Below are positions 1 through 61,916 of a DNA stretch of 64,000 nucleotides, one piece after another. Every line of letters starts with the position of its first letter. Within the stretch, counting starts at the first letter, position 1. The stretch spans positions 4,774,001 through 4,838,000 of the forward strand of contig CM102288.1 of NCBI GenBank assembly GCA_046563655.1. The letters run 5' to 3'. This stretch comes from Yuukianura sp. NJ FZ-2021 (Eukaryota). The position numbers were made by a program, and so were the translations under genes. Under the pieces are notes generated by a model. It had not been told where the DNA came from. It was given only the letters and a program-made list of their open reading frames with translations, and made no database searches.

Positions 1-3000
1 CTTGACGCTGAAGCAGGAATGTTGAAATGCGTTGCGTCCACAGAGGTGGCACTCTTGAGCGCCTGAATTTGGTCCACACTGAGGAACGACAAAAGTTTTG
101 GATTAGCCATAACTCGTTTGGCGGTGACATACGTCAAATTTCCAAGATGTGCTGGAGTTAGGCTCTGAATTTGTTGCGGTGTCATTTCCTGGACAGCCAG
201 ATGGTGGAGTCCTTCCAGGGCCAAGGGCGAAATTGATGCAAGTGCTTCAGGCGTTAATCCTAAACACACACAAAAAGCAATCGTAAGTTCTTCAGAAATC
301 TGTCACAATTTCAAAATCCGATGCATTTGAAAGACAAAATTAAAAAGCAGTTTCGAAGTATTGTCAACGTACCTGCCACTACAACCCCGACCGTATTGAC
401 ATCTTCAATCGTCCAAGCGTTCGGAGGACCAAAATTGGTGGGCTGGACAGCATAGTGTGCCAGAACAGATAACGTCTGAGGTTCACATCCTTGGAGCCTT
501 CCAAGTAAAGGACTCACGTACAAGAACATCGTCGGAGAAGAATCGAACATAATTTTCAACACAGTTTCGCTTAGGCCACAGACGATATTTCCAAGTGACC
601 ATATCGTGGCCCTCATCAAATGTTCTTCAACTGGACGAACTTGTGTAGTATCGAGGCCATTGTCTTTCGTAAACTTGTCACCAATCACCTTCAGCTGAAA
701 TCAGAATCCACAGAATTTCAAAAAACTTTTCCTTCGTTTTTTTTTTAAATTTGTTTTTACTAACCATTACAGGATCCGTAATTTGTGATCCAAGAACAGA
801 AACGCTGTCCAGGTTGAGCGGCACAGAAAGGTCAATGGCCGAAATGTCAAAAGGAGTCAAGTTGTCCTTGCTTCCAGAATCAATAGAACTGAACAATCCA
901 TTGGCAGCATTTGCATGTCCCGATGTTGACAGAGCCGTGACCAAATTTCCGAGTTCAATGAGGTTTACAGTAGTAAGAGCCTGGGTAGTTAAATTCAACT
1001 TCTGTTTGTACACTCGTAGTATTTCACGCTTCGCTGATTCACTCCAATCCACAAATCCAATTGTTTCAATGCAGTCACGCAAGTCATTTGGGTGCAGCGA
1101 TGCCAAATCCCGTGGTATGACACCGATTGCTGCAGGTCCGGCGGCTTTAATTCCCAGACATGTCAACTATTAGACAAAAACCAAACCAAAAGAATAATGT
1201 ATTCAAAAAGTTTAAATTTTACGGCGTAACGGCCAATTGGATGCAATAAAAATTCATACCTTAGGCTCCTGATTGTCCAAAATCGATCTTATACGTTCAT
1301 CATTTTTCACGGGACGAGCTGCTTGTGCTCCAGTTGGTGGTGGTTGCTGAGACTGGCCAGGTTTCGACTGTGGTGGCTGTTGAATTTTTGGTGCCGGTGG
1401 CTGTTGAAATTGTGGTGGCGGTGGCTGTTGAAATTGTGGTGCCGGTGGCTGTTGAAACTGTGGTGGCGATGGCTGTTGAAACTGTGATGGTGGCTGTTGA
1501 AATTGTGGTGACAGTGGCTGTTGAAATTGTGGTGGTGGTGGCTGTTGAAATTGTGGTGGTGGTGGCTGTTGAAATTGTGGTGGCGGTGGCTGTTGAAATT
1601 GTGGTGGTGGTGGCTGTTGAAATTGTGGTGGTGGTGGCTGTTGAAATTGTGGTGACGGTGGCTGTTGAAATTGTGGCCGTGATGGCTGTTGAAATTGTGG
1701 TGGCGGTGGCTGTTGAAATTGTGGTCGTGGTGGCTGTTGAAATTGTGGTGGTTGTGGCTGCTCTCTTGGAGGGGTCGATGGATGTGGCGTCCGTCCCGTT
1801 TGAGTAGCCATTGTTTCTGGCAAGTGAGGATGGACGATTGGAGGTTGTTGTTGTCTTGGATCCATTTGACCTTGAACCATGCCTGGAGGTTGTTGTTGTC
1901 TTGGATCCATTTGACCTTGAACCATGCCTGGAGGTGGTGGCATCGGAGCTTGCCTTCTGTACCTCTGAGAATCAAAATCCAGCGTTTCCTGGCCGCATAC
2001 CAAGGAATCTTGCGTCCGAACACAATCACCCATCGGTGCTTCTCTTGCAACTCGCCTTGCATTTACTGTATGCTGCATTTTCTGTACAAAGTTCACCATC
2101 ATTTCCGATCCCAGGACGTACTTACGCATCAGAGCCAAGAATGAGTCTCTGTAATCTGATGAATGCGGAAGCAAAGAGACGCAGGCACGTCCAAATGTAA
2201 CTGGCTCTGCCTTTTCGGGCAAGTGTACTGGAAAGTTGAGTCCAGATCCTTCAAGGAGCGGAGTAATGACACGCCCAATTTCAGCTACTGACAACTTTCC
2301 AATATCTTCCAGATTGAGAGCAACCAGCAAATCACCAATTACCACCAAATCTGCACTCTTCCAGGCTGACACATCCGGTCCAAACACGTTCTTCAGAGTA
2401 GCCGTCCATTCTTCCTGTCCAGTACGATCTAAACAACAGGATTTGGATCCTGGAAAAGTCTTGGACTCCAGAAGTTGTCGAACAGCAACTTTTGAAAAAT
2501 TTCCCTTGAGAAGATCGGCGTAGCAGAACAAATTCCCCATTTTCACTAGCGATGCAGTGTCAGGTAAGGCAGAGTCAACAGGTTGACCTGGTTGGTTCGA
2601 AATCGCTGAAATGTCATTCAGCAGCAGCGATCCATAACGCCTTAGCGCTGAAGTGTGAAGTAGAAGCAGCAGGTCAAAGTTCTCCATTTGTCCAATTTCA
2701 ATCAGAACTTCTCTGCGGATATTTTCTTGCAAGTTTTCCAGACCTTGTATTGGAATTCCACTGAAGATTTCACCTGAAAAGATGAAAAAAAAAATTAAAA
2801 ATCAAAAAGTAAGCATGCATGCTATGGTTGTGAAGCAATTGAGTGCTAAACGGATTGATTTTTTTTTTGCTTTATTTTGAACAATTTTACTTACCCCCGA
2901 TTAGCCCAATTTCATTCATCTCCAGTCGACTAAGTACATTAGTTCCAGTATCGCCAGGTTTAGTTGCGAGGTGCAACAAGAGAGCATCCAGAGCACAGTC

Positions 3001-4305
3001 CCTCAGGTTAATTGGAAAATTTAAATTAGGAATTTGCTTTCGATTTGCATGAAACTGATTGATGAACATGTCCAGAAATGGAATAATCTCGTCATGTGGA
3101 AGACTCTGGATCTGATGACAGTTGACTCCCATCAAGGCTAGACTGGCTAAATCACTTGTAGCATTTCTGGATCGGAGATTCTGGACAGACAGACTATCAC
3201 CTCCCAACAGAGTTTTCAACAGACTTGATAAGAAGTTGGTCGGCAGGAGTCTGACCTTGGCAAGGTTAAGTTCATTCCGACGGGCAGTAAAGTCTGTCAG
3301 AGCTCTCACAAATACTGGCATGTTTTTCTGTAGTATAGGAAGAGGGAAGACGGTCATCAGTTCATCAGGATCGTCTGTTCCAAGTATCATGGTCACTGCA
3401 TTGGGGTCATTGAGTCTCGGAATCAACTTGGCAGCGATGAATGCCTTTTGAGACGGCAGCATTCCAGAAGTCTGGCTCACGAGAGCTTTGAGAACTTGAG
3501 GATTCAAGGGCCTCCCCAGAGCAACACTTATGTTGAATGTTGGAATTCCTTTGATCAATTGTGGCTGGAGAGACAGGACGTAGTCGTGTGGACTGTGGCT
3601 GGGCAGTGTCGGCAAGAAGTCGGCCATTATTTGCCAAATCCGAAACGTACTGAGTGGCTGCGTGTTGACTTGTGACCCGAGATTAATGATTGAGGACATT
3701 TGAAGGGGGGCCCTTGGAGTGCCTGGGTTAACGAAACTGCTTCCGTTTGTAAATCCTGGTGGAAGTGGAGGAGACAATAGTTGAACTGGACTTGGTTGAG
3801 CGCGGAATGAGCCTCCAGGCACTTGAGGACCAAATGGCTGACCTTGCTGGAATCGTTGGTTTTGACCTTGTGGGGACTGTCGAAACGGTCTTTGTTGGAG
3901 CTGTGGTTGCTGACTTTGTCGTGACACTGGAACTTGACCTGGCTGGAATTGCGATGATCCTGGACTTTGTTGGAATGATGGTCGACTTCCTGGTGGAAAC
4001 GAAGTTCCTTGACCTTGCGGACCCTGCGGAAATGTTCCAGACTGGGATGATGGCCCTTGACCTTGTGGAAATGCTGTTGCTGATGGCGGTGGACCAAATT
4101 GTTGACCTTGGATTCGACATATTCCTACGAAAAAAGAAACAAAAGAAATTCAACACCAAACCAACACTACTTTTTTTTTTCATCAAAAATTGACACAATC
4201 AGTGAAATTCTTACCTAAACACAGTGAAAATAAAATCGCTGACTGCAGAATTGGCGTAACCCGCAATGGAGGTTTGTTCGTCCTCCAATTCGGATTGATC
4301 CACAT
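1..4305 (-). CDS. Stereocilin/otoancorin/mesothelin-superfamily secreted protein with Pro/Gln-rich inserts; 3' end lies beyond the left edge
   Basis: Manually spliced GT-AG exons 4305-4215, 4124-2895, 2773-1260, 1166-765, 694-373, 259-<1. The N-terminus MWINPNWRTNKPPLRVTPILQSAILFSLCLG|ICRIQG looks like a signal peptide. Repeated family-type motifs: 'LKNVFGPDVSAWKSADLVVIGDLLVAL', 'LIELGNLVTAL', 'FGPPNAWTIEDVNTVGVVVAG'. Confidence 0.7.
1375..1755 (-). repeat. Coding 24-nt tandem repeat, about 16 copies, encoding PPPPQFQQ
   Basis: Unit ggtggtggctgttgaaattgtggt repeated on the + strand with point variants and one 21-nt unit; in frame with ORF 1254..2732. Confidence 0.95.
1840..1935 (-). repeat. 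Exact 45-nt coding duplication (PPGMVQGQMDPRQQQ x2)
   Basis: ggaggttgttgttgtcttggatccatttgaccttgaaccatgcct occurs twice in tandem. Confidence 0.9.
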
Positions 4306-5880
4306 CTCCGTAGGGTGTTGACGACCTCGTGGAACTGGGAACAAACTGAATTGAACTTGAACAGAGTAAGAGATCCACCTTGTCCAGGAAGTCCAGAGAG
4401 CTCGACTGACGTGTGTGTTGGTTACTGAAGGTCAAAGGCTTCTTCCCTGACGAATCACTTGGACACGTCGACATCATGCCTCCCCTCCTACTAATCTCAC
4501 CTGTAATAGTCAAATTGAGACTTTTATGAACTTATCTCAGAAATTAAACTTCTCAACCAGGGTCAAGGAACGATTTACCTGATAATCAAATCCATCATCA
4601 GTCTTCCAGAGTCCCCTCGCTTTGCTGTTAACTTTGCAGTGACAATTATTGTTACTTACTCCAATTAGTTAACTATTCACTATTTAACCAATAACACAAA
4701 CATAATGGAATGGAGAGGAGAGTAAAAAAACATTTCAACTTTTCATGACTCATGTTCATATAAACTCAAATGAAAAATGAAGTTAGACGACGACGATTGA
4801 TGTAAACGGTAATGGGATCTTTCATGGTGACATTGAAACCTACCCCGCATTTTTTAAAGTTTTTGTTATGTGACGTAGATGAGTTTCAATTTTAGAAAAT
4901 TGGATTTTTTTTAAACTTTTTTTTTAAGAAAAAAGTAGAAGTGGAAAACGTTATTGAAAAAGTGAAAGTGATCTTGTAGAGGGATTAGTGATCTGTTTGT
5001 TGGCTGTGATTGTGGCTTACCAGCTTACCACCTCTACCCCATACAGTTAAAATTTCCCACAATCCAATTAGTAATTGAATTAAAACTTCATTGTCCCACT
5101 CCACCAGAAGAGAAAAGAGAATGTGGGAGAAAGCACTAAAACTTTTGCCCTTTTCTCAATTTACTCAACTTTTACATCATTTTCATTTAGAGTTCGTTTT
5201 CGTTTCCCACTGAAGTATATCAAGTGGAAAGATTACTTTCTCTCTCTCTCCCACCACCACTAGTGCAAAACAATTAAAAAGAGATCAACTAGCGACTTAG
5301 GGCAGTCACACACTCAATCCCTGCACTTATTCCTCCGCTCCATTTGACCTCTGACTTCTACAAACAGTCACAACGAGTTACGGAAAAAAAGAGACGAGGA
5401 ATGCTCTTGACCCACTGACAATGGCTACTTCCTGGAATTCAGTTCCTGGAAGGGTCAATGTCAGTGGCTTACAATGACCACAATTTTGTAGAGCGTGTAA
5501 TCGGAATTAACTGTCTCCTTTCACATTGTGCTTCCCCCGGGGTCAAGGCACTCTTTTCGTCTTTTCCAAAAACTACGTCACAAATTACAATGGAGAAAGC
5601 ATACGTCAGAGTCCCGTCAACAAATATGAGGATTTACACTGCCATTTTCAGGCTGGAACTTCCAGAAATTAGTTTTGCATAAGAGGCATTCCAGGATAGG
5701 CAGGGTTTCATTCATTTCTACTAAAAAAAAGTTTCCTGAATTCATATAAATCCATTTCGAAAATACTTAAGTAAATTGAATTCTGGAAATTCTAAAGACT
5801 AACATAAGACGTTTAAGATTGTCCTTCTCTCTACGAACTAAAAAAAATCAAACGAATCCTCACCGATTAAGGGGCTACAT

Positions 5881-7104
5881 TTACATTTTCTTGATGCAAA
5901 TTCCATATGGGCGAATGCTGCTTTCCTTTTCAGTGATCCAATACTCCCCCTGACCTCCAGTGTCTTCTGTAGTTAAAATCCGAATGTCGTCCGGATTCAC
6001 CCTGTTTTGAACCACGGCGATGTAATTTTCACCGTCAAGTTCGAACTTCGAACCATAACGTTCCGCTACAGAGATGTCCGGCGTAGTGTAAATTCCAACG
6101 CGAAACGCAAATCGTTTTCCCTTGCCGAGTAAAAATCCGTCTTCAGCAATGGACTTCATTTCGTGAAGATCTGTTCCGTGGTATGACACTGCAGATCAAA
6201 AGCGGTCAGTTACATCAACAATGACTTACAGTTACAATTACAGTAAATACCAAATACTTGTGTATGTTTATAAACGAAAAAAAAGGACCAACCTGGCCAT
6301 TCTCCTTTCACTGAAGAAATGCCCGATTTTCTTTTTCTACTGCAGCACGCCCCAAGCCAAGCTGTATAAAACATTTTTAAAATCAATACTAATAGAAAAA
6401 AGCGTTGTTTTGTTTTATATTTTGCGAATTCATGGCGTACCGTTACAGTCTTCGTAGCGGTCGAGAACGTTCAAAGCGATGCGGATCCATCCATACGGCC
6501 TGCGATATATAAACTTCCCTCGGAAATACACAGATTCGTCTTCGATGCCTGTAAAATCGTAGTCAAATCGCGAATCTCTGAAATCGGGTGACAAGTACTG
6601 CGTTACTGGACATCCTTCGGGTCTCATTTTCAAAACGAGATGAAGTATCGAGTCCGGTTGAATATTGTAGTGCTTTAAAGGACGCCCATCTTCCAACCGT
6701 TTACCAGCAAACAGGATGAGTCGCTGTTGATCCGCAGGAATTCCTTCTGTGTCTTGTATTTTCGACCGAATGTTCTCAATAGTGTCCATCTTGTTGAAGC
6801 CCAAAGTTATGGTTTTTCCACTCAAAGTCTTTACGTACAGGACTTTACTCCCTCGGAGTACCGAGGTCGCAGCCACTGGCTGTCTCTGGGGCGTGTTGGC
6901 GTTGCTCGGTTCGCAACTAACGTCGTCTTTCATCAGCTGAGTCAAATGTAATGAAAGTAGGTTGACCTCCTTAACGTCACATTCAGTCACGTGAACTACG
7001 CCGTAGTTACGTACGGACAAGGACACAGCCTGTTCTCTACTGGCGGTGATTTCTACTTTAGTTATTGCAGACAACGCAGCAGCCAACAGGTCATCAGACG
7101 CCAT
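5881..7104 (-). CDS. Ubiquitin-like domain fused to a NEURL4/Gig2-type ADP-ribosyltransferase (ARTD-like) domain
   Basis: Exons 7104(start may lie further upstream)-6441, 6361-6293, 6188-5881 join in frame. Ub domain: [12 protein letters not shown]...[27 protein letters not shown]...LHLVL. It is followed by [56 protein letters not shown]. Confidence 0.8.
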
Positions 7105-8085
7105 TGTCGAGCTGCGGTTTTCACGCAGTAGCTCAGTAGCTGCAATGCTGTCGCTGTGCACTTTGGTACTGTATCGGGTCTTCTGGAAGGATTCTGGAAA
7201 ATGAAGGAATGAAACGTTTACCATGTTGTTAAAGAAATACGACTAAACTTCCATGCATAACTTAATATTTCAAATTCTTAAAAATTAATCGAGAAGTACT
7301 CACATGTTCTACTTGACGATTGAGTATATTAATTACTAATTGGTCCTTGTCAAGGTCGTCGTCTCCTTCCCCGTTCGCTTTTTGGACAAAAGACAAAACG
7401 TGCTTAATATGTAACGTTTTCACAATGTTTTCTCTTTGTTTATCTTAACTACTTGACTTAAGGATTAGCCCGAACAGTGTGCCCACTCTCGCCGTTGTGT
7501 GTGGCCGGCCACATAGGCGGCTACCGCTAAATGTCGACGTATAAAACCACTATTAGATAAACTTGTCTAACCTACCACAACATGGCATAATAAGTTGTCG
7601 TACAGTGCAGCCTTTAACTGCTGTAAAAGTAAAATCGATTGTTGTAGCCGCAATTGCTCCTCCAGCACTGCTGGACCAGCAGCATTGTAAGACTACAATG
7701 GTAGTCGTTAAACCTTACTCTAACCTAAAAGTGTGTTCCTATCCTTTGTTTGGTGCATGGATTTCATATGCTCGCGCGGAAACAAAACGAATCTCACAAT
7801 GCCCCGAAACACTGCAAGATCTATGAACTTAAATGTATTTCAGTAAATTTTTGTGCCAATTTATTTACTATTTGCAAATTTTGAACGCTTATGGAGTTAA
7901 CCGACGCGTATGAAGTTCCTACGGATGTATACACGACATTCCGTATAAAATGAAAGCATTTTTAATTGAAAAATTAATTTAACTTAAAGTCAAATTTAAT
8001 AACAATTAATTTGTGTTCCTAATTTTAAAAAAGATAGCTCGCGATGGGTATTAGTTCAACAATTAGCCAAATTTAAAGGGTGAGT

Positions 8086-9854
8086 TCAACTTTTGGACAC
8101 AAATGTTCCATGAACCCCTTGAGGAATGTGGCAGTTGACATAGCCACGCCCAATTTCGGTCATTGACTTTGCGTCAAGAATCAGCAGAAAGTCTTTGCCT
8201 GCGTCAACACTTCCGTCAGTCACAACGGCACTTAGCAAAACACCATCATCTTCCGCAGTTCCATTAGGATTTGGCACAAAAACCGCCTCTCCAACATAAT
8301 ACGAGTTTGATTTCCGCCATGTCTTGACCTTTGTCGTCGTTTCTCCCCGAGTGTCAATCTTTGCTATACTGTTTCTCCAAATACCATTGGTCACTGATCC
8401 AGTACAGTAGAAATAGCGATACTGTTTGGCCAAGAACTGTCTGTTGATTGTCGGCAAGTCCAGACCAGGAAGACTCAGAATTTGCGGAGTCAGAACAATT
8501 TTTGAGCCTAACTTGACTGCTTTAGCAGAAGTTTTTACATCCGATATCAAGTTGACTTCCGTTGTTACATCCAGGTCACTGGTGACCCCCAGGGGAATGA
8601 CGAAGCGTTCGGCTTGTGGAAGGTCATCTTCTCGAAACGTTCCTCTGCGCAGATTGTCCACTGTCATGCTCTGGAGAACGGATGGATTTGGACTTGTAAA
8701 GAGGTCAATCACAATGTGACCGTTGACCTCAAAGGCATTGATGACATGCAGGAAGAAAAATGGAGTCACGGAGATGAAGTTCGTCTTGATCAGTTTCCCG
8801 CTCGATTTTTCAATTATGAGGAAGTTATTGGTCAAGTCGGGTCGCCAGTCGAGCCAATCAGAAATGGACTTGTTCTTGGTCAGGGCTCCACCCAGGACGC
8901 GTGACACGACGTACACGTACGGTTGCTCAATAATGACAATGTAGTTCTTGGTCATCGCAAAACTGTGATTGAAACTCATCAGTCCGTTCCAACTTTAACA
9001 AAAAATTGGAAAAATTATCAAAAACTACAAAATCAAAAACACAATCTCCAGATTTTGTTTCAAAATATACCTGGATGGCACTGAAGCTATAATTTTAGAA
9101 TTTTTGAAAGTGTTCATAGCTGAGTCGGTGGCTGCCACAGTAATCGGTGGAGTTCGGATAACGTTATACTTAAGTCCAGTCATGATTGAAGGACCGACGT
9201 TGTATGTCACCCCGTCGTCATCTGTCAACGGATGACATGTCATGGAGTTTAGGCCAAACAGTTTGAAACTGTCAAATTTTTCAGTAGTTTCCAAACTCTC
9301 CAAATCTATCGTCCGAAAATGACAAGTTTCATGAGAAGCAAACAATTTAGATCCCAATTGATATGCCGCCAAATTGCAATTGTCAGTGAGTGGTGGTACC
9401 TGTTTAAAAAAAAACAATCAAAATTTCTAAATTTTTCAACAAACTTAAAATTTCAAATTTTCTTGAAATTGTGATTTTCACTTACAATGTTTGGCATTAT
9501 TCGCGAAAAGAATCCGCGCCCCGGATCGGGAAATCCGCGTGTGCCGAATTCACAAACGGTTGGACGACCGCTCAACTCCGCTTTTGCCTTAGCGTCACTT
9601 TTGAGCAACTTTTTATGAAAAGTGATCTGCGTCGGCGTTATGTCAAACCTGCTGAGAACTGCGTATCCATCAAAGATGTGTTTCATCTGGAACGTGTTTC
9701 CGGTGACCCCGAGGTCAAAGACTCCTGGCCCTGACCTTACAAATGACCCCTCCAGCCATCCTGGAATGGATCCTTCAACTTCCGTGACCTCTGGTTGGTC
9801 CAATTCTTCAGTGGTCCTGAAGACACGAGCCAAAGGGAACTTGGAATCTCGCAT
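8086..9854 (-). CDS. Carotenoid cleavage oxygenase (NinaB/BCO/RPE65 family), copy 1
   Basis: Exons 9854-9486, 9399-9071, 8992-8086. Motifs GSIPGWLEGSFVRSGPG, HIFDG, EFGT...PDP and EDDGVLLS. Four Fe-binding His in TCHP, FNHSF, FLHVINAFE, GVHGTF. Confidence 0.92.
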
Positions 9855-10180
9855 GTTACCGATCTTATGCAACTTTTAACAAGAACTGATGGACTCATGG
9901 CATTACCACTCTCATTTTCTGTCTCGATCTTCAAGGATGCCCGGTTTTGGCTTAAGCACAAATTAGCACGACCTTCTTGGAAGTTGATTGAGAGTTCATA
10001 CATTCAAGATCGTCGCAGTTAGCAACTTGTTTTTTGTTTGCTTCTGAATTTGATCTTCCTACGTCAAGTCAGGCCATGGACAACATCTCTACACCCCAAA
10101 ATCCTCAAACGAATTCAAATTAACAAGAAGTGGGATTCCTATGTGACTTCACTCGAATCTTTGGCAAAAAAATTAAATCT

Positions 10181-10467
10181 GGAGTTTTCATTTATAAATA
10201 ATTTATAGAATTTATAGTTATTGTGTATAGAATTTAGAGTATATATAATTTACGCGTGTATAGGAACGTCACTTTTCAAACTTTTGGGAATTACAAAACT
10301 TGCAACCATGACTCATTGGTTCCATAAACGAGAAAAGTTTAGAAAGTGGCGTCACAGACTTGAAATCGACCAATCACGGAAGCCGTAACAAAGTGAATGG
10401 CAGGGTTTAAAGAGGCGGGACTTCCTGAATTCTATAAATTCTATAAATTGTTTATAACGCCAACTCC
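10181..10467. mobile_element. MITE-like element with ~36-bp imperfect terminal inverted repeats (family A, copy 1)
   Basis: Left ggagttttcatttataaataatttatagaatttatag; right ctataaattctataaattgtttataacgccaactcc (reverse complement ggagttggcgttataaacaatttatagaatttatag). A related copy lies at 28687-28986. Confidence 0.7.
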
Positions 10468-11326
10468 TTATTATGTATTTTGCTATGTACAAATATGTCC
10501 AAGCTGTTCTGCTTTCAAGAAAGGCAGACTGAGTTCTTCTCTAGTGACCTCGTGTGACCTTGAACTGTTCCTTCAGAGGAAGTTGAAATGTTTTAGAATT
10601 TGATTAAGCTGAGGTGCAATGAAGGGGCCTAGGGGCCTTGTCCTTCAACTTCCTTCGCTCCTTAATTGAATTGCGCCCTCAACACAACTTCCAAAGTGCC
10701 ACATGAAGTTGTTAACCTAATAAACCTCAAAACCTCAACCTAATCTCTCGCATCTTGAAGAATGAACATCTTCAAACACTTCCACAACTCTCCAATTTCC
10801 GCTTTTAAAATCCAATTTTTGGCAGAAAAGTGGCATGGATTTTTGAAAGTGTAAAAAAATATGCAAAAAATTCCATCTCCTTTTCCTCGTTGAAAAAAAT
10901 GAAACTCGTTATGGCTAGAGAACGGAGAAGGTCAGAAGGTCACGTTTCAAATTCAGTTCGGGGAATTGTATTCAGAATCATCGGAATTTTCCACACTGTG
11001 AGCAAATTCCGTGGAACCCTTAAGGGTCCCTACTCTCTAGTGTCATACTAAATCAGAGACAAAGTGAAAGTCGTAATGGAATTCACAGTGGGAAAGGAGT
11101 GGAGAAAGTCACGGTAATTGGACGCCGTGCTTTCTCTCTGTTGCAACTAAATTGGATCTAACAAGTCCCGTTTCCCATTTCATATTTTTAGAATTTCATA
11201 AATAAAATCAAACTGAACGGAAAAAGTTATTCCGCAGCTATTTTTGGCATCTATTTTCACAAATCAAATCATCACGTGTTTCAAAATTTCAAATTTTAAA
11301 TCATTTTCTTCCGTTGTTAACAATTT

Positions 11327-12238
11327 TCACAAATCGCAAATACATGGAACAGGAAATACAGTCAAGTATAAAACTCTGATAAAAGTCAGTCCGAGAATCA
11401 CTTTTTGCCACATTTTGCGTCTTTTGCGCGGTTGATAACGCAGGATTGTTGCGTCCATGGAGCGTAATCGGTAGAGCGGGAATCTTGAAATCACGTAGCG
11501 ATCTTCCACGACTTCGTATTCTGATGCCGGATCTTTACTGATGTCATATGACACCAGAATGCCCAGAGCCGCTAACAAAAACGGTGGCCAAAACCAGTGT
11601 CGCTTGTGTGGGAACAGGAATGACAGGACGCATGCGACGATACAGTTTTTGTAAATGAGTCGATGGACAAAGTTGGCCACAATCATGTATCGATGTAGTC
11701 TGCGTCCCATTTGCGCAGGTTCACACACGACATACGTCGTTTCCTGTTCCATCGCGACACAAATTGACGTCCATTCTTCCACTTTGTCATTCAGTTCACT
11801 CTCTTCGATAATCAGAATTCGTTCGTCAGTGTATGTCCAGAGTGACATCTCATAAAGATCATGTATCCCTGTTCGTGGCCACTCACATTCATGCACTCCA
11901 TCGCGCCGACGCGTAGTATCTCGTTTTCCTAGAGCTCGAAATGCGTCGTCCTTGACATAGGCATAGCCTTCGGGCAGTACTGGATAAATGGCGTTTGGAG
12001 GTCGATGAAGCCAAGAATCCGTCACATGATCCCCGATTTGGTTATGTCGACGGCCACTTTGGAAATAAGATTTGGCGAATCGCTGAATTTGTAAAGTACG
12101 GACTTGTTGGTAGAGCGGGAGGTCGAGAGAGTGATGCAGCCCTGTTGCCGAAGCATGCGTGTAGCCTCCGTGGCCATAAGCACTGTAACTGTTGAAATCA
12201 AAACTGCGCTGCTGCCGCTGTTGTGTCGAGTCGTCCAT
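11327..12238 (-). CDS. Divergent intronless TMEM11/PMI-like mitochondrial membrane protein with long N-terminal extension
   Basis: The C-terminal ~170 aa align by eye with TMEM11: [32 protein letters not shown] ~ [55 protein letters not shown] ~ DPCCKYQVEYDAYKLSRLPLHTL. Three hydrophobic segments; single ORF, first ATG at 12238. Confidence 0.7.
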   Translation of the reverse strand: [303 protein letters not shown]

Positions 12239-60078: not shown

Positions 60079-61916
60079 ATGCCAGAAAATCAGATTTGCA
60101 AGCTGTTTGAAAATTCGCAAGAAACAGAGCAGCCTCAACACGCCAAAATCGAAGGTTCGGAAAATTAATGTGTATATTTCAAAATTTAAGATGAAAAATG
60201 AAAAACCGAAAATGAAAATTCTCTACTTTCAGGGTCAATACCGGAATGGATTTTTGGAACGTTTTTAAGAACAGGTCCCGCCAAGTGGGACCTAGACAAT
60301 GGCCAATTCAGTTTCAACCACCTCTTGGACGGATTTGCAATGATCTCAAAATTTGTGATTGACAGTTCTGTTCAAACAGTCACTTTAGAAAAGAAGTTTT
60401 TAAATTCCGATGCTTACTCGCGTGCAATCGCTGCAAAACGACCCGTCGTCACGGAATTCGGAACTCCGAGTTGCCCCGATCCAAACCGATCTTGGTTTTC
60501 TAAAATTCTATCAGCATTTCTCCCGATTGAACTCTCAGATAATAACTCAAGTGCTCTCTTTCGTCTCGGATCAGAAGTATTTACAACTTCGGAGACTTGT
60601 TTCTTCAGGTCACTTGACCCTGTGACCTTGACCTCTACTGAGAAACATGACACGAACAAATGCTTTGGAGTCAACATTGACTCTGGTCATCCTTTGACCG
60701 ATGACGACGGAACTACTTGGAACATGGGCTCGACTTTTCTCATGGGACTCAAGTACAACTTGTACAAAATTCCAGCGCAGAGTTCCTGCGCATGCGCAGC
60801 TCAGTCGGCCAAAGAGTTAATGAAAACGTCAAAAATTGTTGCTACGATTCCATCAAGCTGGAACGGCCTCATGAGCTACAACCACCAAAGTTTCATTCTG
60901 ACTACCAACTATGTAGTTTTTATTGAGCAGGTAACGCAGTTAACCTAACAAAAATAACCTAATTGAAATTAAAGTTAACCTAACAAACTTTTCTGTTCTT
61001 TTGCAGCCTTTTGTTATGAATATTGGAAAAGCAGCGAAATCGATTCTGCGAGGCTCTCCAACATTTTCGCAGTATGTCGAGTGGAGACCGGAACTCAGAA
61101 ACCGATTTTTCGTAATCGAAAAAGAATCGGGAAAAATTTTGAAAAATGAAATCTACGCCGCTGAATCTTTTTTCTTCCTACACTACATCAATGCCTACGA
61201 GGAGAACAATCAGGTTACAAAACACTGACGGGTTACGCGTCTAAGCACTCTACACTTTAACATAACCTTAATAAAATAAAACTAACATTTTCTGTTTTCA
61301 GATAGTCCTTGACCTCATCAGTTACAAAAATGCGGACTTATTTGATGACATGTACATGGACAAGTTGAGGTCAGGAAATATTGCAGAGGTCAACTCAGGG
61401 TCAGCCCATCGCTACGTCATTCCCCTTGGGGAGATTGATACAATGGACGAAAACAGGAACTTGGTGGAGGTGAAGAGTGAGGCAAAAGTGGTCCGCAGTG
61501 GGTCAACTCTCATCGTTTATCCAGAAGTGCTGACTTTTCCAGGAATCGAGTATCCAGTACTAAACAAATCACGAGCTGGAAGGAAGTACAAGTACTTCTA
61601 CGGCACTGGAACTCTAGGGAACTCCCCTTACACAAATTCCATTACTAAGTTTGACCTCTCTGCCAAAATCGGGGGGTCGCTTAGCTGGACTGGAACGGAG
61701 ACGCAGTATCCAGGTGAACCGCAACTGTTGCCAAACCCTGCTGGAAGAGCAGAAGATGATGCTGTGCTGATTTCGGCAGTAACTGACGTGGGGTCAAATG
61801 TCAATGACTTTTTGGTTTTTCTGGACGCGAGGTCAATGACCGAAATCGGACGAGCTAATTTTTCCCACAAACTGCCACAAGCACTGCACGGCCTCTTCTT
61901 ACCAGCAGATGCTTAA
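60079..61916 (+). CDS. Carotenoid cleavage oxygenase (NinaB/BCO/RPE65 family), copy 2
   Basis: Exons 60079-60154, 60233-60930, 61007-61213, 61302-61916. Motifs GSIPEWIFGTFLRTGP, HLLDG, VTEFGT..PDP, EDDAVLIS; His ligands SGHP, YNHQSF, FLHYINAYE, ALHGLF. Confidence 0.92.

Follow-up and report, generated by a model that had tools for sequence, protein, structure and literature searches.

Ubiquitin-like domain and PARP-fold ADP-ribosyltransferase in one springtail gene, a probable arthropod member of the AACRN/AACRNL family

A stretch of 64,000 nt from Yuukianura sp. NJ FZ-2021 (assembly GCA_046563655.1, contig CM102288.1, positions 4,774,001 to 4,838,000), called the window in the following, contains an interrupted gene on its reverse strand (Table 1). 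With a probability of about 0.7, this gene is an intact arthropod member of the AACRN or AACRN-like (AACRNL) family, in which a header, a ubiquitin-like domain (UBL) and an ADP-ribosyltransferase (ART) domain of PARP fold are combined, and its product is most likely an intracellular NAD+-dependent mono-ADP-ribosyltransferase acting on itself and on host proteins. The architecture had been presented as novel, which does not hold: it is published for AACRN and AACRNL (ADP-ribosyltransferase-associated Crinkler and Crinkler-like; Xu et al. 2026, PMC12957317) with Arthropoda among the phyla listed, and annotated Ub-ART proteins exist for Folsomia candida and Daphnia pulex. The gene adds a member to a published family that already has annotated representatives among arthropods; its architecture is not a discovery. 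This family was named only in 2026 and studied in one fish with a degenerate UBL (PMC12957317). The window locus adds an invertebrate in which the UBL is nearly intact, the copies are old and under purifying selection, and transposon ends are not visible; it bears on host co-option, a question left by the authors of that study.

Table 1. Positions of the gene, its exons and its protein features in the window
Feature	Position	Strand	Remarks
Exon 1	6441..7104	-	residues 1-221: header, UBL and first part of the ART domain
Intron 1	6362..6440	-	79 nt, phase 1
Exon 2	6293..6361	-	69 nt, WLG ... GEWP
Intron 2	6189..6292	-	104 nt, phase 1, within Val of VSYHGT
Exon 3 and stop codon	5881..6188	-	ART catalytic core
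Start helix of the header, [12 protein letters not shown]	7060..7104	-	family-wide, without Pfam match
UBL	6622..6840	-	residues 89-161; Pfam PF00240, E 7.9e-24
P162-E163 in place of Gly-Gly	6616..6621	-	domain ends R-P-E, not R-G-G
H248, NAD+-binding histidine	6178..6180	-	H in 254/254 aligned rows; equals fish H168 by published primer
Y278, first Y of H-Y-Y	6088..6090	-	Y in 250/254 rows; equals fish Y196
Y289, second Y, 11 residues past Y278	6055..6057	-	Y in 211, F in 42 of 254 rows; equals fish Y207
E326, putative catalytic acid	5944..5946	-	E in 185, D in 31 of 254 rows (E/D 216); start of late beta strand

Splicing of three exons was foreseen in the original prediction and is borne out by the sequence. 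Both introns begin with GT (6440 and 6292) and close with AG (last base at 6362 and 6189), all four junctions thus being canonical, the GC content of the introns is 25% and 33% versus 45-49% in the exons, and a paralog on contig C4 has both introns at identical positions and in identical phase. The spliced frame comprises 1041 nt with its sole stop codon at the end and encodes 346 AA, not approximately 300 AA as estimated before. Since the spliced protein aligns with full-length homologs over residues 3-345 (P0024: 47% identity), homology confirms both splice junctions, and the predicted gene model is regarded as more than a chance arrangement. The motifs were located as reported, i.e. YRRPYGW at residue 200, YHGT at 247, GIYTT at 276 and GEYW at 325. 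The ATG taken as start codon is backed by N-terminal similarity among the homologs. A further in-frame ATG at 7222-7224 (-), 40 codons upstream of 7104, could lengthen the N-terminus; the C4 paralog has about 20 additional residues ahead of the conserved N-terminal helix.

The header, for which no Pfam match was obtained, extends from residue 1 to approximately 85. A loose pattern describing its start helix fits 112 of 263 homologs, including Hydra and rotifer-like proteins, and in the relative P0005 the header is modelled as helices with short strands (pLDDT 87-93 over residues 1-40; model residues 1-45). The helix was considered as a link specific to Glomeromycota, which was discarded because Hydra and rotifer proteins carry it too. 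The UBL had been described as near-canonical ubiquitin. This is correct for the body of the domain, in which 50 of 72 residues (69%; PDB alignment) are identical to ubiquitin with one residue inserted, but incorrect for its C-terminus, where R-G-G is replaced. Among the ubiquitin-equivalent positions, L8, K6, K11, K29, K48, H68 and V70 are retained and K27, K33 and K63 are altered. An RGG-like pattern is found in 98 of 263 homologs and in the C4 paralog, the only one of the three intact host copies which retains it. The ubiquitin-ART fusion had been recognized correctly; the loss of the di-glycine and the conserved header had been overlooked.

For the ART domain, conservation of the active site was determined in 254 rows covering this domain out of 266 sequences (12 were dropped). 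H248, Y278, Y289 and E326 are all present in the window protein; at the position of E326, the C4 paralog (L003, G000:C4:4259333-4259635) has Asp. Because it is conserved and placed at the start of a late strand in the model, E326 is read as a putative catalytic acid, which would be equivalent to the PARP1 glutamate. The Pfam PARP match of exon 3 alone is weak (E 0.04), and a search of PDB sequences with exon 3 and with profile A2 returned nothing significant (best E 0.07, 0.03; PARP16 E 0.08). As a fold search with the full-length model returned ubiquitin-like chains only, the ART domain was modelled alone, whereby the relative P0062 (50% identical, pLDDT 91) stood in for the window protein. 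This ART-only model matches PARPs with a Foldseek E of 1e-6; PARP10, PARP16 and PARP15 are found at Z 11.4-11.9 and rmsd 3.6-3.7 over 132-150 residues (PARP10: Z 11.9, rmsd 3.7, 139 residues), and diphtheria toxin follows as a weaker match at Z 6.6 and rmsd 4.5 over 101 residues. The ART fold, for which a check had been proposed, is thus seen in a relative of the window protein, and the earlier claim of an intact ART of the H-Y-E type is supported. PARP10, PARP15 and PARP16 (ARTD) share fold and H-Y-E-type active site with the family, whereas sequence identity is 12-14% and the PARP regulatory domains are absent from the window gene. Likewise, it has neither the translocation nor the receptor-binding part of diphtheria toxin.

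The assignment to AACRN/AACRNL rests on published primers and on architecture. PMC12957317 defines AACRN by an N-terminal UBL and a C-terminal ART domain, the same order as in the window gene, and gives a type example from Acaulospora colombiana. The mutagenesis primers of that paper, when translated, read GEWPVSY[H]GTS, GRGI[Y]STPYIEEA and AYL[Y]AKSF, and the window gene was tied to the family because these encode the same motif context around H248, Y278 and Y289: GEWPVSYHGT is identical and GIY-TP(+11)Y matches. The spacing in the window protein compared to the fish enzyme is 30 versus 28 residues between H and the first Y and 11 versus 11 between the two Y. Patchy occurrence, including Arthropoda and Glomeromycota, and several copies with pseudogenes are further common traits. 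In a strict AACRN, the UBL closes with RGG, whereas that of the window copy closes with R-P-E; AACRNL is the form with a degenerate UBL and RGG lost, and the window copy has lost RGG but has kept the UBL close to ubiquitin. By its sequence, it therefore falls between the two forms, being 69% ubiquitin-like without RGG. E326 and the conserved N-terminal header are additional features not mentioned in the accessible part of PMC12957317.

Among arthropods, the annotated Ub-ART proteins of Folsomia candida (LOC118438812, XP_035715465/6) and Daphnia pulex (EFX82967) are 332-363 AA long and contain GIY-TP and GEYW. The Folsomia protein is 36% identical to the window protein over the full length, and intron 2 is probably common to both; it has kept RGG, and its UBL is more degenerate (Pfam 34 bits versus 84 for the window gene). 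The claimed resemblance to NEURL4 is real at motif level, since the NEURL4 ART (PMC8932523, PMC3417536, PMC9027952) also has Y-x-x-P-x-G-W-x-R followed by W-x-V-x-Y-H-G and belongs to the H-Y-[EDQ] clade, but it is distant. NEURL4 itself was ruled out, because the tandem Neuralized repeats are absent from the window gene and the host possesses a separate NEURL4-type gene (L046, G000:C7:6893000-6902999), which combines several Neuralized repeats with an ART-like exon at the C-terminus and is located approximately 200 kb from the C7 paralog; its ART-like exon scores weakly against the profile of the family (12.8 bits; E 0.0016 among 485 fragments). To the Crinklers (CRN) of oomycetes, the family is linked loosely. 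A ubiquitin-fold module ahead of an enzyme domain is common to both (PMC5289972), whereas the Crinkler motifs LXLFLAK and HVLVVVP given there are absent from the window translation, and its UBL is near true ubiquitin and internal in the protein. A weak match to Pfam Crinkler was obtained for 5 of 88 family members and none was reported for the window exon; in the review file of PMC12957317, a reviewer objected to the Crinkler name. A preprint on fungal PARPs (10.64898/2026.07.25.740670) deals, as far as its available part goes, with other families.

The ART activity of the window protein is predicted from the fish member, a mono-ART for which mono-ADP-ribosylation dependent on H-Y-Y is described (PMC12957317); accordingly modelled, the window enzyme would modify itself and host proteins inside the cell. 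A restriction to single ADP-ribose units is not certain, as H-Y-E is described as the signature of polymerizing enzymes and NEURL4 is reported to make chains. In relatives with RGG, host deubiquitinases could free the ART domain. In the window copy, which has no di-glycine, the UBL would neither be cut off by deubiquitinases nor be conjugated. Because the hydrophobic patch and the position of K48 are kept and the di-glycine is lost, the UBL may serve as a fixed docking or degradation handle, which would keep a potentially harmful enzyme short-lived. The host probably retains the gene for a stress or immune role and not as a mobile element. The fish substrates EZH2 and TRAF6, which come largely from transfection and were criticized by a reviewer (review file of PMC12957317), should not be carried over to the window enzyme without test.

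The host genome (98.7 Mb, 22 contigs; 41 matches to the arthropod cuticle family Chitin_bind_4) was searched with exon 3, and five loci on four contigs were obtained. Three are intact, i.e. the window gene and Ub-ART paralogs on C7 (383 AA) and C4 (347 AA) with 48-50% protein identity, and two are broken by stop codons and frameshifts, which answers the question of a paralog count raised earlier. A query with the first half of the ART domain matched only the three intact loci. Between the intact copies, dN in exon 3 is 0.25-0.28 and dS is 0.91-1.63; calculated by simple counting over 100 codons with dS near saturation, these values are a rough sign of purifying selection on three dispersed copies. 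Beside the broken C1 copy lie a NACHT-like long ORF (L011 1-2922) and an imperfect palindrome of 700 nt (L011 6576-7280). Just upstream of the window gene, an RPE65/carotenoid-oxygenase gene is located at 8086-9875 (-) of the window (Pfam E 3e-58), and ORFs at ~60202-61913 (+) look like a second copy of it. At 10192-10457 of the window, the two AT-rich 26-nt arms of an inverted repeat are 96% complementary and separated by 214 nt, and they could represent a small non-autonomous element.

Two readings compete with that of an intact host enzyme. For fish AACRNL beta and gamma, an 'epigenetic parasite' residing in hAT or mariner elements with terminal inverted repeats was proposed (PMC12957317), and the host copies could similarly be selfish and spread with neighboring DNA transposons. 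Besides this published model, the five loci, dispersed, non-syntenic and in two cases broken, agree with such a view, as does the palindrome, which is ~1.3 kb from the broken C1 copy. However, the intact copies are old (dS ~1 or more at the identities given above), and similarity between loci is confined to the gene, no flanking DNA being common to the copies. Of 64 inverted-repeat pairs within 900-12100 of the window, the 25 longest include no convincing pair of ends around the gene; the best repeats are 20-32 nt long with 71-85% match and do not pair as ends, and the neighbors are ordinary host genes. A transposon-linked model fits poorly, because the copies are old and terminal repeats were not found, and a purely selfish reading is disfavored since these old copies are under purifying selection; it is regarded as improbable. 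Still less probable is a silent or decaying relic, or a fungal contamination of the assembly. Decay would be in line with the lost di-glycine, the one-residue insertion in the UBL and with a few positions at which the window copy deviates although they are conserved in the rest of the family, but the frame is open over three exons, all four active-site residues are present and dN is well below dS. Contamination is opposed by a GC3 of 0.47-0.52, which resembles the 0.40-0.51 of neighboring genes, by the position at 4.78 Mb on the contig among intron-bearing genes of animal type, and by the three intact copies on three contigs. The intact intracellular ART remains preferred over both.

The lineage specificity suggested earlier is not supported; the spread is patchy, paralogs are present and the best matches are fungal. 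A protein search with exon 3 gave 19 matches among 91 candidates, 17 of which are named Glomeromycota proteins with 53-61% identity. Wider searches yielded 460 and 1695 proteins (the best 120 were listed each time) and 2145 clusters at 50% identity. Species names were looked up for 20 proteins, and most of the 150 listed representatives are unnamed. Named relatives with Ub-ART or ART comprise Hydra, Rotaria, Adineta, Porites, Coregonus, Daphnia pulex and Folsomia candida among animals and Dictyostelium, Balamuthia, Pharyngomonas, Caulerpa and Xylaria outside; the Ub-ART protein P0046 of Acaulospora colombiana is 49% identical over the ART domain. The six best full-length matches (four named Glomeromycota, two unnamed) score 273-283 bits, compared to 225 for Hydra and 193 for Folsomia. 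Scans with two short patterns confirmed 0 of 89 pattern matches in viral contigs and 1 of 45 in prokaryote genomes, the latter a 20-residue match with E 1e-4, which was taken as chance.

A tree of the ART domain was calculated from 48 rows and 180 columns, for which 25 Glomeromycota rows were chosen from >90. Its backbone is poorly resolved. Support for a group of the host copies is weak (80/23), while a branch with 73/94 separates the host copies and Folsomia from all other rows. The best tree places Hydra and rotifers with Dictyostelium (87/89) and Daphnia apart from host plus Folsomia. AU tests rejected neither a single arthropod clade (p-AU 0.335) nor a grouping of the host with Glomeromycota (p-AU 0.27), hence horizontal transfer is neither demonstrated nor rejected by the tree. 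A sister group seen with FastTree (0.86), which consisted of one Funneliformis protein, one from an amoebozoan and one from a protist, was gone once taxa were added and was therefore discarded.

The best lead on the origin is intron 2, which favors a mycorrhizal donor. Its position is identical in the three intact copies of the host. Out of 21 metagenomic loci, 18 cover its site; four have an acceptor at the exact host position, with the donor visible in three, and 14 read through. These four loci are 66-77% identical to proteins of Rhizophagus/Glomus type. The two Folsomia isoforms differ by 15 residues ending exactly at the intron 2 site (VSYHGT), from which we infer that Folsomia uses the same acceptor. 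Among the loci covering the site of intron 1, the window gene and the C4 paralog are the only ones to have it; the C7 paralog, L012, L013 and L015 lack it.

Two origins were weighed. The family may be old in eukaryotes and vertically inherited, with frequent loss and local expansion, in which case its likeness to fungal proteins would reflect slow evolution and dense sampling of Glomeromycota; this is given not quite even odds. It would account for the occurrence in Amoebozoa, Heterolobosea, a green alga, unclassified protists, ascomycetes, Glomeromycota and several animal phyla, for the large number of clusters and for the header helix in Hydra and rotifer proteins, and it agrees with the arthropod clade that was not rejected and with host plus Folsomia on one side of a branch. 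However, animals are not one group in the best tree, as Hydra, rotifers and Daphnia lie elsewhere, Folsomia is the only named arthropod among the best 120 matches to the host profile, and PMC12957317 marks three possible cross-phylum transfers. Alternatively, an ancestor of the springtails may have received a copy with its intron from an arbuscular mycorrhizal fungus of Glomeraceae type, this copy being duplicated and domesticated afterwards, which is tentatively considered and rated only slightly lower. The Glomeromycota proteins leading both the exon 3 and the full-length matches speak for it, as do the same-base intron in four of 18 scoreable metagenomic loci, all Rhizophagus/Glomus-like and none among the 14 others, the acceptor implied by the Folsomia isoforms and the position of Daphnia in the best tree. 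Transfers from Rhizophagus to Folsomia are reported in general, Rhizophagus being named the source of 87 (PMC5490193). Against this origin, no supported nesting of host copies in Glomeromycota was obtained, and over-sampling and short branches of this group inflate the best-hit ranks. The intron 2 survey covers metagenomic loci, mostly unnamed where intron-less; two of its four positive loci, L012 and L015, look like near-copies, and in L014 the acceptor alone is visible. Finally, the exon ends in CAG, and parallel intron gain is possible. An exon end of CAG is a likely site for such a gain.

Taken further, an AACRN gene with its intron would have moved from a Glomeraceae-like fungus to fungus-grazing springtails and been tamed there by triplication and by loss of the di-glycine in two of three copies, whereby a fusion open to cleavage would have become a host ART tethered to its UBL. 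This complete scenario is rather unlikely; if true, the function of the ubiquitin module could be tested directly on the natural pair of copies, one with RGG and one without. The shared intron 2 offers a cheap test of the transfer from fungus to springtail. The remaining interest of the locus lies in a UBL that is intact but for its di-glycine, in the natural pair of copies that differ in RGG, in the glutamate and the header, both neglected so far, and in this shared intron.

Two further observations concern the host genome. Two full-length matches to COX1 (L006 G000:C4:7555540-7556880, L007 C10:1261863-1263203) have identical scores and 12 TGA codons each; no tRNAs were found at these loci. 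As they lie inside large contigs, they may represent mitochondrial DNA copied recently into the nucleus or artefacts of the assembly. PARP-domain genes (21 matches genome-wide) form clusters on G000:C3 at ~1.33-1.36 Mb and 7.08-7.11 Mb, which suggests a separate PARP expansion.
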